From a bacterium (GTDB taxonomy: Bacteria; Patescibacteriota; Dojkabacteria; JAKAPS01; JAJZLI01), in NCBI GenBank assembly GCA_021803645.1, contig JAJZLI010000032.1, positions 1 to 40,924 on the forward strand: a stretch of DNA of 40,924 bases. Reading direction: 5' to 3'. Every line of letters starts with the position of its first letter. The stretch's first letter is position 1. A program made the position numbers and the translations under genes. The notes under the pieces are model-generated. The model made no database searches. It had not been told where the DNA came from and worked only from the letters and a program-made list of their open reading frames with translations. Shown in pieces: positions 25,539-35,292 of this stretch.

Positions 25539-28500
25539 ATGAGCAGTTTATTATTTTTACGTACAAGCAAGCAGGTAAAATCATCCTTGGGGTTTATTAT
25601 TATATTTTCTTTGTTTCTATCCTTGGTCTTTATTAATTTTCGTGTGCTTGCAGGTCCTCCTCCCAGTATATCTTCAGTAAATATAACTGCAACAACTTGT
25701 TCATCAACTATTGCAAATGGTGTAACTTCTGCAAGGGTAGGAGATACCCTTCAGATAAATGGAAGTAACTTTGGCAGTTCTACTGGATCTGTTACTGTTA
25801 ATGGAGGTTCATTTAGTATTTCTTCTTGGTCCTCTTCTGTAATAGAAGGTAGTATATCGGGTACAGGAACCATAACTGGAAATATTGATGTTGTAGTTGG
25901 AAGTAGAACTGCAACATTTTCATTTACACTTAATCCATGTATAACATCTATTTCTCCTACCTCTGGTGGGGCTGGTACAAGTGTTACTATATCTGGAAAT
26001 GAATTCGGATCCAGTCCAGGTACAGGCAATTACGATACCTCTACTAATAATATTACTTTGAGTGGTACTGCAATACCAACAGGAGATGTCACTTCATGGT
26101 CAACAAGTCAGATTGTATTTAATGTTCCTTCGGGTTCAACTTCGGGTAATATTGTTGTCACGGCAAGTGGAAATGTATCTAATGGTATGACTTTTTCTTT
26201 GTCCTCACCCCCAAATCTCCCTAACAATTTAGCACAGGATACATTAGCCCAGACTCTTACTCCATCCACTTACTATTATGAAGTTTCGGCAGTTACTAAG
26301 TATGGTGAGAGTAATGTTTCCTCTGCAGTTTCTGTTACAAATTCTTCTGGAGATGTGAATTCTGTGGTATGGAATCCTGTAGTCGGTGCAAGTTCATATA
26401 ATGTATATAGAGGTACAAGTGCTACAGATATGACTCAGTATGTAAATACACAGAATACATATTTGATTGATGATGCAAGTGTTACTTGGAAAAGTTTAGG
26501 AGGTATTAGTTGGAGTGGTTTTGGGGATTTATCATCTGCTACGAGTGTTGAATATGATGGATATGTGTATGTCATGGGAGGATACAATGGAAGCTCCTAT
26601 TTAGATACAGTATATTATGCCCAGTTGTTGCAGGTGGGTGGTGTTGGTACTTGGATTAGTTCACCCAACACTCTTCCAGATACAAATGGGATAGCTTATG
26701 CAACAAGTGTTGAATATGATGGATATGTATACTTAATTGGAGGAGGTAACTCTTCCAGTAGTGTTTTAGGTACTGTGTATTATTCTAAATTGTCTCCTTC
26801 TGGAGGAGTGGGTCCTTGGAGTAGTACAAGTTCACTTCCAAATGCAAATGGAATAGATGGTGCAACGAGTGTTGAATACCATGGATATGTTTATGTAATG
26901 GGAGGGTATAATGGAAGCTCTTCTTTAGATACAGTATATTATGCCCAGTTGTTGCAGACGGGTGGTGTTGGAACCTGGAGCAGTTCATCCAACACTCTTC
27001 CAAATACAAATGGTATAGAGGGAGCAACAAGTGTTGAATATGATGGATATGTGTATGTTATAGGTGGATATGACGGAAGCTCTTATTTAAATACAGTATA
27101 TTATGCTCAGTTATCTTCAACAGGAGGAGTGGGCACTTGGAGTACCTCCAGTAATACTTTCCCAATTTCAGGTGGAATATATTCTGCTATGAGTGTTGAA
27201 TATAATGGATATGTGTATGTCATGGGAGGACTTAGTGGGTCTAGTACTGAGAATACAATATATTATTCTCAACTCTCTTCAACAGGAGGAGTGGGTACTT
27301 GGAGTAGTTCAGGTAACTCACTTCCAAATGCAAATGGAATAGATGCTTCTACTAGTGTTGAATATGCTGGATATGCATATGTCATTGGTGGTTATAGTCA
27401 AAGCTCAGACGATTATTTAAATACAGTCTACTATGCTCAGTTATCTTCAACAGGAGGAGTTAATTCATGGATTAATACAGTTAATTTTTTACCTAGTGGA
27501 ATATCTGGTGCCTCGAGTGTTGAATATGATGGATATGTGTATGTCATGGGAGGATATAATGGAACCTCTTATTTAAATACAGTATATTATGCCCTGTTAT
27601 TATCAATAGGTGGTGTTGGTGCATGGAGTAGTTCAACCAATACTCTTCCAAATATAAATGGAATCGCTTATGCAACTAGTGTTGAATATGATGGGTATGT
27701 GTATTTGTTGGGTGGGTATAATTCTACCAATGGTGTTTTAGGTACAGTATATTATGCTCAATTATCTTCTTCTGGAGGGGTGGGTACTTGGAGTAGTTCA
27801 AGTAATGTACTTCCAAATGCAAATGGAATAGATGCTGCCTCAAGTGTAGAATATAATGGGTATATTTACATAATAGGAGGAAATAATGCAACTAATGGTA
27901 CATTGGATACGGTTTACTATGCCCAACTATCTTCAACTGGAGGGGTGGGTACTTGGGGTAGTTCAAGTAACTTACTTCCAAATTCGTATGGGATAGATCA
28001 TGCAAGCAGTATAGTATATGACGGGTATGTGTATTTATTGGGTGGATATAACGGAACTAATGGGTATTTGTCTACAGTCTACTATGCTTCGTTATCATCC
28101 ACTGGAGGTGTAAATGCTTGGAGTACATCCAGTAATAATCTTACATACGGAGTAGCTGATGCTGTATGTGAGGAATATGATGGTTATGTATATTTAATGG
28201 GAGGATATAATTCGTCTAGTGGATATCTTGGTAATGTATCTTATTCACAACTGTCTTCAACTGGAGGGATTAGTTCTTGGTATAACTTGTCGAGTAGTCT
28301 TCCAACAGCTGCAGGGTTAGGTGATTCTGTAGGTGCTGAGTATGACGGATACATATATACTATAGGGGGATACGATAATGAATACTTATCTGATGTATAT
28401 TATGCTCATATCAATAATGTTCCTGATGGATCTTTCTCTAGCTTAGCATTCACGGATACAAATCAAAATACTTTATCTTGGTCTTCTGTTTCTGGTGCCA

Positions 28501-34348: not shown

Positions 34349-35292
34349 TGTTAACTCATTTAAAGAAATTTAAAGTGGAGTATATTATAGCACTATTTTT
34401 ATACATATTTTTTCCAGTAATTGTCCATGCAGCACCTTCCAATTATAATGTTGGAGTTTCTGTGTCTGTTCCTCCAACAACAGTCGTTTTTAATGGATAT
34501 ACTTCTCCTTCTGCTTTTGTATATGTTGAGCAAAATGGATCAGTTTTAGCTACAGGATCTGCTTCTGACACTGGTAGTTTTCATATTTCAATTGAATATA
34601 TCTCAAGCGGTATTGAAAATTACCAACTATATTCTCAGGATACTGAGGGCCTTAATAGTAGTATATTTAATATATCTGATAATATTCTAAGTGATACTAT
34701 TAATACAGTGTCTGATATCAACCTCTCGCCGTCTATAAAATATGAAGAAAGTGGCAATGTATTCACTATAAGTGGAATGGCTACTCCAGGAAGTAATTTA
34801 GAAATATTCATGAATACTCTTCTTTATAAGAGTACTCAGTCATCTATTTCTGGTGTATGGTCATATAGTTTAACAAATCTTCCAAGTGGAAAGGTAACTC
34901 TATCTGCTCTTGATATAACTGAAAGCGGTATCATATCTAATCAGTCAGATATTGTTTCTTTTGATGTCTCAAATACAATAGTCAATACAGAAACTATTAA
35001 AGTATACTCACCTACTCTTGTACAAAATGTCTCCAGTTCAAATTCTTTACATATAGTATCCTCACCTTTACCTAATAGTAAATTACAACCTCCTCCTGTA
35101 TCAGTTGTAAGTCACGTAACCAAACCTGTAATTAATCCTATAGTTCAAGCAGTACCAAAATACTCTGAGATAGAGAATTCTCCAGGAGAAAAGTATATTG
35201 AGCCTATATCACTTGCAATATTAATATTATCATCTCCTTTATTGTTATTTTTTATATGGAAGATAATATTATCTATTATTAGACTGAGATAA
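34345..35292 (+). CDS. Surface protein with two Ig-like repeats, a P/S-rich stalk and a C-terminal hydrophobic anchor plus RLR tail
   Basis: It has a signal peptide (LFLYIFFPVIVHA|AP) and two similar beta-rich modules. The C-terminus (ISLAILILSSPLLLFFIWKIILSIIRLR) resembles a cell-wall sorting signal, but without a recognisable LPXTG. The start overlaps the upstream stop (ATGTGATG). Confidence 0.55.
   Translation: MMLTHLKKFKVEYIIALFLYIFFPVIVHAAPSNYNVGVSVSVPPTTVVFNGYTSPSAFVYVEQNGSVLATGSASDTGSFHISIEYISSGIENYQLYSQDTEGLNSSIFNISDNILSDTINTVSDINLSPSIKYEESGNVFTISGMATPGSNLEIFMNTLLYKSTQSSISGVWSYSLTNLPSGKVTLSALDITESGIISNQSDIVSFDVSNTIVNTETIKVYSPTLVQNVSSSNSLHIVSSPLPNSKLQPPPVSVVSHVTKPVINPIVQAVPKYSEIENSPGEKYIEPISLAILILSSPLLLFFIWKIILSIIRLR

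Follow-up and report, generated by a model that had tools for sequence, protein, structure and literature searches.

Two described cell-surface systems are closest to the gene cluster considered here, namely the Pam pilus and the WxL/Csc complexes. The Pam pilus was reported in 2026 from cryo-electron microscopy (cryo-EM) of two pilins of Candidatus Mycosynbacter amalyticus (Troman et al. 2026; bioRxiv 10.64898/2026.03.03.709456). PamA and PamB each contain a nine-strand N-terminal domain (NTD), a linker strand and a truncated Ig-like C-terminal domain (CTD), and polymerize through entry of the linker into the CTD of the next subunit (Troman et al. 2026). The predicted helpers of this process are PamC and PamD, PapD/FimC-like proteins with a C-terminal transmembrane (TM) segment; a tip protein that has the CTD only and no linker (PamT) and a TM-anchored, RbmA-like protein (PamR) are likewise predicted (Troman et al. 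2026). WxL clusters encode small and large WxL proteins, a WxL-interacting protein (WxLIP; DUF916, DUF3324 and a TM segment) and CscD, and have been reported only in Lactobacillales and Bacillales; in this system, AlphaFold2 (AF2) predicts that a strand of WxLIP completes the WxL sandwich (PMC10599100). The cluster compared with these systems occupies positions 25539-35292 of a contig of 40,924 nucleotides (GenBank JAJZLI010000032.1, assembly GCA_021803645.1), which was analysed over its whole length and is hereafter called the window. It comprises five genes, O1 to O5, and is probably a divergent operon of the Pam type, encoding an usher-less pilus assembled through chaperone-assisted donor-strand exchange. 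The source DNA has a GC content of ~31%, and an affiliation with the candidate phyla radiation (CPR) is suggested by matches to CPR-specific models, by homologues named Levyibacteriota or Uhrbacteria and by gene content. Identical copies of the proteins of the window are encoded on ENA metagenome contigs, which reach 113 kb.

Organization of the five-gene cluster

An earlier note, made from the letters of this DNA alone, had described five plus-strand genes as a surface-protein cluster resembling a WxL/Csc complex. Open reading frames (ORFs) are indeed present at the positions that it gave:

25539-31343, + strand: O1, ORF of 1934 amino acids (aa), secreted giant adhesin-like subunit
31348-32274, + strand: O2, ORF of 308 aa directly 3' of O1, membrane-anchored chaperone-like protein
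32276-33328, + strand: O3, ORF of 350 aa, Pam-type pilin and putative shaft subunit
33404-34348, + strand: O4, ORF of 314 aa, membrane-anchored chaperone-like protein
34345-35292, + strand: O5, ORF of 315 aa, Ig-like (Big_6) protein, putative membrane anchor or fibre terminator

An alternative start of O5, the ATG at 34348, yields the 314-aa protein called as a gene on the parent contig. The successive intergenic gaps from O1 to O5 are 4, 1, 75 and -4 bp, and the spacing is operon-like. By hydropathy, each of the five proteins has a hydrophobic, signal-like segment in its N-terminal part, and O2, O4 and O5, but not O1 and O3, have a C-terminal TM segment as well. The recognizable folds are distributed in the same pairwise manner, as a six-frame scan of the window located the CTD discussed below on O1 and O3 only and the chaperone fold on O2 and O4 only. 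Searches of the five proteins and of the other genes of the window revealed no outer-membrane usher family.

The same window contains T4SS-like (type IV secretion system) genes and a sortase gene (9941-10726, - strand), as the earlier note had correctly observed. The sortase, which lies 15 kb upstream, might assemble the products of the cluster into a Gram-positive-type pilus or cell-wall adhesin, and the structural matches of O3 do include MSCRAMM-like Ig adhesins. However, a motif scan found no LPXTG-like sorting signal in any of the five proteins, and both O1 ('...YTVIPSF') and O3 ('...YVVTPTY') end without a TM segment or positively charged tail. Moreover, the sortase gene belongs to or borders the T4SS cluster, and related metagenome-assembled genomes (MAGs) do not keep it in synteny with the locus. 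Because O1 to O5 lack sorting signals, the sortase is not considered to be involved, and a sortase-dependent pilus was rejected as highly improbable.

A pilin-type domain shared by O1 and O3

O1 and O3 end in the same kind of domain, as had been proposed from the sequence, although its family is not the one suggested at that time. A direct BLASTP comparison of the two proteins is nearly uninformative (E 0.022). A hidden Markov model (HMM) built from the C-terminal part of O3 homologues, in comparison, matches O1 at aa 1749-1934 with 55 bits (E 2e-18), and the O1 and O3 orthologue sets align across the entire CTD, with TNAxNGY, GFG and QxAGxYxN..YxV..[FY]-COOH in common. Judged by profile and alignment, this shared domain of ~170 aa is real. 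It has no Pfam family. The earlier note had called it WxL-like, but no recognizable WxL domain is present: PF13731 matched neither the full proteins (E<=1), nor the isolated CTDs (E<=10), nor any of 35 homologues (E<=1), and a motif scan detected no W-x-L in any protein of the cluster.

The domain instead matches NF058581 (CPR_Pam_pilin_C), an NCBIfam model built from the work of Troman et al. (2026; bioRxiv 10.64898/2026.03.03.709456) and accompanied by models for PamR (NF058578) and PamT (NF058579). The isolated CTD of O1 is matched with E 1e-8 (35.4 bits) and that of O3 with E 5e-7 (29.9 bits; E 8.6e-6 for the full-length protein). Both CTD matches score below the curated cut-off of 55 bits, but span model positions 2-148 of 148 and finish at the last residue of the protein. 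Among the homologues of O3, 24 of 35 are matched by NF058581, with a best E of 1.4e-43, and one that is 32% identical to O3 (P0070) attains 145 bits, well above the curated cut-off of 55. At the level of sequence, the homologue family of the shared CTD thus includes genuine Pam pilins.

The remainder of O3, a 350-aa secreted protein as originally described (ORF, signal segment, no TM segment), is organized as follows:

aa 1-29, + strand: signal (hydropathy)
aa 36-168, + strand: NTD of nine strands (AF2 model)
32810-32839 (aa 179-188), + strand: linker 'DPSLSFTITG', putative donor strand (family conservation, AF2 strand)
aa 209-350, + strand: CTD, after a T/G-rich loop (NF058581 match)

An AF2 model of O3 computed from a 35-sequence alignment (predicted local distance difference test, pLDDT, 86.5) contains nine strands at aa 36-168, a single strand at aa 182-188 (LSFTITG) and the CTD at aa 224-348. 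The linker is conserved in the family, with the consensus 'VDPSLxF...GVASG'. As modelled, the layout of O3 is that of the published PamA and PamB pilins, and by analogy with their cryo-EM structures the linker would serve as the donor strand (Troman et al. 2026).

The giant protein O1 carries the same domain at the end of a very different molecule:

aa 12-40, + strand: signal-like segment (hydropathy)
25935-26195 (aa 133-219), + strand: TIG/IPT domain (PF01833, E 1.3e-8, 35.1 bits against a cut-off of 20.9)
26526-28388 (aa 341-937), + strand: Kelch repeats, 12 blades with GY[VIA]Y..GG motifs (regular-expression count)
29466-29837 (aa ~1310-1433), + strand: concanavalin-A-like/LamG domain (PF13385 Laminin_G_3, E 4.1e-7, 30.7 bits against a cut-off of 27.6)
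30834-31340 (aa ~1766-1934), + strand: C-terminal Pam-type pilin domain (NF058581, O3-family profile, alignment with O3 orthologues)

The Kelch blades are spaced 53-55 aa apart (a 54-aa period), and the region matches Pfam Kelch_1 (E 4.6e-33), Kelch_6 and a KLHDC2-type propeller. Further beta-rich modules are additionally present. The architecture first proposed for O1 therefore holds for its TIG/IPT, 12-blade Kelch and LamG parts, found by Pfam and regular expression, but not for Fn3, since no Pfam fn3 family matched O1 at E<=0.1. Directly before the CTD, O1 retains the strand 'EPSLSFSI', the counterpart of DPSLSFTI in O3, and lacks the T/G-rich loop of ~20 aa that follows in O3.

Membrane-anchored chaperone-like proteins

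O2 and O4 are paralogous (BLASTP E 2e-7), and both combine a signal with a C-terminal TM segment, in agreement with the initial description of a pair of related anchored proteins. Their predicted parts are as follows:

O2, aa 271-308, + strand: C-terminal TM segment (hydropathy), preceded by a signal and a beta-rich ectodomain
O4, aa 35-166 and aa 174-277, + strand: two beta-sandwich domains (AF2 model)
O4, aa 280-308, + strand: C-terminal TM helix (AF2 model, hydropathy)

O2 was used in building the chaperone-family profile (A1), which makes its own score against that profile circular; its orthologues in five loci outside the A1 set (L005-L009) match the profile with E 1e-47 to 1e-52. The AF2 model of O4 (pLDDT 85.7; predicted template modelling score, pTM, 0.71) consists of two beta-sandwiches followed by the TM helix. 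The earlier note had proposed Foldseek searches with predicted structures, and these placed WxLIP first: the best match of O4 in the PDB is Enterococcus faecium WxLIP (9i1y, E 2.8e-12), aligned over ~260 columns that cover both domains, with the WxLIP-long-WxL complex (9i25) at E 3e-11. The chaperone-usher chaperones CfaA (1.2e-10), CsuC, YadV, FimC (1.5e-8), Caf1M and PapD (1.3e-7) follow. The Pfam families PapD_N and PapD_C have no match in the chaperone-like proteins.

Profile searches, also proposed in the earlier note, had a divided outcome. O4 matches DUF916 (PF06030) weakly, with E 0.017-0.029 and 14.9-15.6 bits against a cut-off of 27.3, over model positions 21-119 of 121, and PF06030 is matched by 15 of 20 O4-family members at E<=0.1 (best 1.8e-8). 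In comparison, PF11797 (DUF3324) has no match in O2 or O4 at E<=10 and is absent from the O4-family listing, and PF13731 matched nothing, as given above. The A1 profile matches EfmWxLIP1 with E 0.15. Because of the DUF916 matches and the WxLIP top structural match, the O2/O4-type anchored component is regarded, on profile and model evidence, as a remote homologue of WxLIP, and the O4 family is not a strict member of DUF916. In a representative protein library, the O2/O4 family includes 19,933 clusters at 50% identity (E<=1e-3), or 3,939 at E<=1e-30. Some of its members (P0075, P0076, P0077) are 600-800 aa in length and are matched twice by the profile, and are thus tandem or fused chaperones.

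The fold of O4 also relates the cluster to the classical chaperone-usher pili (Fim, Pap, CFA/I, Csu and Caf1), whose chaperones share its two-domain Ig-like fold (Foldseek E 1e-10 to 1e-7) and whose subunits follow the same logic of an incomplete Ig domain and donor-strand complementation. The giant O1 has a parallel in their two-domain tip adhesins FimH, PapG and CfaE. Unlike those pili, the system described here has neither usher nor outer membrane, its chaperones are tethered to the membrane, an internal linker would take the place of the N-terminal extension as donor, and the pilin has two domains.

Conservation and linkage to pam operons

A check of synteny, the third analysis proposed in the earlier note, found the order O1-O2-O3-O4-O5 kept in five other species-representative MAGs with differing flanks. 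Identities across these genomes are 52-60% for O1, 33-44% for O2, 54-59% for O4 and 35-48% for O5, and O3 is the best-conserved gene of the cluster (71-78%). It is very hard to reconcile this with five unrelated secreted or membrane proteins that share adjacency only and no common machine. The promoter and terminator scans, which gave no enrichment above shuffled sequence, are uninformative and leave room for such a coincidence; however, the gaps between the genes are operon-like, their order is constant despite the changing flanks, O1 and O3 have a domain in common, and the chaperone family is tied to Pam pilins in distant loci.

The latter tie is provided by the locus of the O3 homologue P0070 (L013), which contains matches to PamT (279.7 bits, cut-off 240) and PamR (269 bits, E 3e-80) in addition to its pilin at 145 bits, and which by these sequence matches is a bona fide pam operon. 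The gene directly 3' of its pilin has no NCBIfam model, but is matched by the O4-family profile (E 1.3e-89) and by O4 itself (BLASTP E 7e-26). O2 and O4 therefore belong to a family that accompanies Pam pilins. Another related locus, that of P0011, adjoins an ATP-synthase operon, as reported for pam operons.

A further distant locus (L016; positions 1-8829 of ENA ERZ27297473 k141_628882) encodes, in order, a 6009-aa protein, a pilin, a chaperone and a second pilin. The 6009-aa giant has matches to PT-HINT, DUF2341 and Toxin_R_bind_N and a Pam-type CTD at its end (E 8.5e-16). These sequence matches make it a further giant cargo, unrelated to O1, of the same C-terminal module.

The last gene of the cluster, O5, is Ig-like and anchored, as originally described. 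Its Big_6 Ig domain is detected with E 1.2e-7 and 5.4e-8, and its C-terminal part is predicted as follows:

O5, aa 284-314, + strand: C-terminal TM segment (hydropathy), preceded by a signal and an S/P-rich stalk

O5 resembles PamR in architecture only, with a signal, tandem Ig domains and a C-terminal TM segment. It is 33% identical (E 2.7e-15) to a Big_6 protein that follows the chaperone in another distant locus (L015). The O5-like Big_6 protein of that locus (10966-12213) ends not in a TM segment but in a dockerin (GC-type, E 2.7e-5), and a dockerin end occurs in the P0011 locus as well. Such ends in some CPR loci suggest, at the level of domain matches, an alternative anchoring of the same system.

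Comparison with the Pam pilus

Several features of the cluster are those of the Pam system. Two membrane-anchored, PapD-like chaperone paralogues (O2 and O4) are present, a TM-anchored tandem-Ig protein closes the operon, usher and sortase signal are both absent, Sec signals occur throughout, and the chaperone family adjoins the pilin in a genuine pam operon. Unlike the type system, which has PamA, PamB and PamE, this cluster encodes a single shaft pilin, and in place of PamT the 1934-aa TIG/Kelch/LamG protein bears the CTD.

Several observations weigh against a Pam-type pilus. The similarity to the curated models lies under their cut-offs, with the CTDs of O1 and O3 scoring 26-35 bits against the 55 required by NF058581. 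No PamT-like ORF (NF058579) was found in the six-frame scan of the window, and the CTDs of O1 and O3 match the PamT model only weakly (E 0.05 and 3.8e-4, respectively; cut-off 240 bits). O5 has no match to PamR (NF058578) at E<=1. O3 is devoid of cysteines, as opposed to the paired cysteines of PamA and PamB, and the ATP-synthase neighbourhood of pam operons is absent around this cluster. Foldseek searches with the full-length O3 model returned only generic Ig-adhesin folds, such as integrin, FnBPA, BslA and CfaE, and no Pam or WxL chain was among the top 50 matches in a PDB copy without Pam entries; nor did phmmer and hmmsearch with O3 and a profile (A3) find anything relevant among the sequences of that copy. 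For the Pam pilus, too, chaperone function is no more than a prediction (Troman et al. 2026). Finally, O1 could also donate a strand ('EPSLSFSI') and need not be at the tip.

The composition of the cluster thus differs from that of the type operon, because O5 lacks a PamR match and the window has no PamT gene. O1 may replace PamT. With these differences, the locus is more suitably grouped with the Pam pilus than with WxL/Csc, and a divergent operon of the Pam type remains the probable assignment.

Proposed assembly of the fibre

The following account of polymerization, the tip position of O1, the client specificity of O2 and O4, anchoring by O5 and attachment to a host is a model drawn by analogy with the Pam pilus and with chaperone-usher systems. 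All five products would be exported by Sec. O3 would then form the shaft, its incomplete Ig-like CTD taking the linker (DPSLSFTITG) of the next O3 to give a linear fibre. O1 would join the fibre via its own CTD, which follows ~1750 residues of modules, most probably as the first and distal subunit; in this it would be similar to the two-domain adhesins FimH and PapG and to 'large WxL' proteins, presenting a glycan- or host-binding head. Its position is uncertain, because O1 retains the linker-like strand before the CTD. O2 and O4 would act as membrane-tethered PapD/WxLIP-like chaperones, capping the groove of O1 and O3 until strand exchange, possibly with one chaperone per subunit, since each chaperone gene sits after that of its putative client. 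O5, with its Ig-like domains and TM anchor, would terminate the fibre and hold it in the membrane, which is the role proposed for PamR.

Relationship to WxL/Csc systems

The WxL/Csc assignment proposed in the earlier note is partly right. A large multidomain protein and a small protein (O1 and O3) share a C-terminal beta domain of ~170 aa, and the anchored protein, which combines a signal peptide, two Ig-like domains and a TM segment, has WxLIP as its top fold match (O4) and resembles DUF916 in sequence. The large, small and anchored components are those of a canonical WxL cluster, and in both cases insertion of a strand from the anchored protein is predicted to complete the sandwich of its partner (PMC10599100). 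On this evidence, the products might form a non-filamentous complex, in which the CTDs of O1 and O3 are clamped by strand insertion from O2 and O4 with no polymerization, and O5 takes the role of CscD. In agreement with this, the best structural matches of O4 (9i1y and 9i25) include a WxLIP-WxL complex, and 15 of 20 family members match PF06030.

The shared CTD was also compared with WxL domains, for which sequences came from the 9i25_A alignment and from splicing (L011, an E. faecium contig, and L012, both of which are frameshifted). An hhalign comparison of the Pam-CTD profile with two E. faecium WxL domains produced a co-linear alignment of 120 columns with a score of 18.2 (P 0.04), above all 100 of 100 column shuffles (maximum 14.6). 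The motifs PFG, then G[WY]x[VL], then AGx[FY]T..Lx[WY]x[LV] are co-linear in the two, and the C-terminal strands are strikingly similar ('AAGTFTADLTWNLVAGP' in WxL as against 'AAGTYTNDLDYVVTPTY' in O3). However, hhalign in global mode was meaningless, HMMER found nothing in either direction between CTD and WxL, and the NCBIfam Pam model had no match to WxL. The evidence for a relationship between the CTD and the WxL domain is hence no more than suggestive.

On balance, a non-filamentous complex of this kind is unlikely. PF13731 is absent from O1, O3 and the 35 homologues, PF11797 is likewise missing, and Y-x-V stands where WxL proteins have W-x-L; the P value of the hhalign comparison is only 0.04. 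O3 has the additional nine-strand NTD and donor linker of polymerizing Pam pilins, both of which 'small WxL' proteins lack (PMC10599100). WxL proteins are described as peptidoglycan-bound platforms and not as fibres, whereas the genuine relatives of O3 are filaments resolved by cryo-EM (Troman et al. 2026). There are two anchored paralogues here and no LPXTG protein such as CscD, as O5 is anchored by a TM segment. The lineage, furthermore, is CPR-like and not Firmicutes. WxL clusters are reported only in Lactobacillales and Bacillales (PMC10599100). The earlier note knew of no WxL-type system characterized outside Firmicutes-like lineages, but the Pam system constitutes a characterized relative outside Firmicutes. 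The earlier note had also named outcomes that would speak against its proposal, namely a lack of similarity to WxL or DUF916/DUF3324 together with a CTD that matches another well-known family, or a lack of synteny in any relative. The first of these applies in part, as the CTD matches another family (NF058581), but similarity to DUF916 was found, and the gene order is kept in five other MAGs.

Given that the chaperones are relatives of WxLIP, a common origin of the Pam and WxL systems is suggested. The Pam pilus and WxL/Csc may be two branches of one ancient, usher-less system of anchored chaperones and groove domains in monoderm-type envelopes, in which the WxL domain would be a diverged acceptor of the Pam type (with W-x-L corresponding to Y-x-V), WxLIP would be equivalent to PamC and PamD, and the CTD would be a portable loader of giant adhesins. 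This proposal is tentative, being close to evenly balanced with a slight tilt against it. The Pam preprint contains no mention of WxL (Troman et al. 2026), the literature searched held no paper tying WxL to donor-strand assembly or to CPR, and a link between the two systems was found in neither body of literature.

In the course of the comparison, a frameshift-ridden copy of E. faecium WxL locus A was found in a record named 'Klebsiella pneumoniae plasmid pSP4663_1' (CP069367.1, 92823-105409; L012), with 96% identity to the long WxL protein. This copy is probably due to contamination or misassembly of a long-read assembly.

Genomic surroundings

The cluster is followed at 35412-36091 (+ strand) by two small ORFs of 95 and 126 aa, directly 3' of O5, which have neither a signal peptide nor a family match. 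They are not conserved with the cluster, as the flank proteins in the other MAGs gave no match above 40 bits. At the other end of the window lies the T4SS cluster (20-9944, + strand), which is of the monoderm-conjugation type and encodes PrgI-like and TraC-like proteins, two VirB4/DUF87 ATPases and a TrbC-like pilin, with an AbiEii-family gene (4988-6256) in its midst. It is followed by the sortase gene and then by a gene for a 514-aa protein without a Pfam match (10738-12282). The rest of the window also contains housekeeping genes, and two adjacent tRNA genes are found at 40069-40242 (- strand), with no other Rfam family in the window at gathering score. On the 113-kb parent contig (L001), COX2 and COX1 are encoded at 18525-20945, ~5 kb past the 3' end of the window. 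Cytochrome oxidase subunits are a noteworthy presence in what is putatively a reduced genome of the CPR kind.

Significance for CPR biology

The CPR, or Patescibacteria, are believed to lead an attached life on host cells, and to our knowledge hardly anything is known of the devices with which they attach. The description of the Pam pilus dates only from 2026 and identified no adhesin (bioRxiv 10.64898/2026.03.03.709456). With the Pam system itself already known, the novelty of the present locus apparently lies in a giant Kelch/LamG adhesin that bears the acceptor domain of the pilin, which makes the locus a candidate for the source of fibre specificity. In a distant locus, this arrangement recurs with another giant protein. 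The very large helper family is in turn demonstrably related to the WxLIPs of enterococci, listeriae and lactobacilli, and thereby links a CPR pilus to a Gram-positive colonization and virulence system whose assembly mechanism is debated. Should the two systems have a common origin, donor-strand exchange may be the mode of assembly of Firmicute WxL proteins as well. CPR cells would, on the same premise, recognize their hosts by means of giant tip adhesins that are interchangeable, loading onto a fibre or surface scaffold such giants as the 1934-aa Kelch/LamG protein described here and the 6009-aa PT-HINT/DUF2341 protein of the distant locus.

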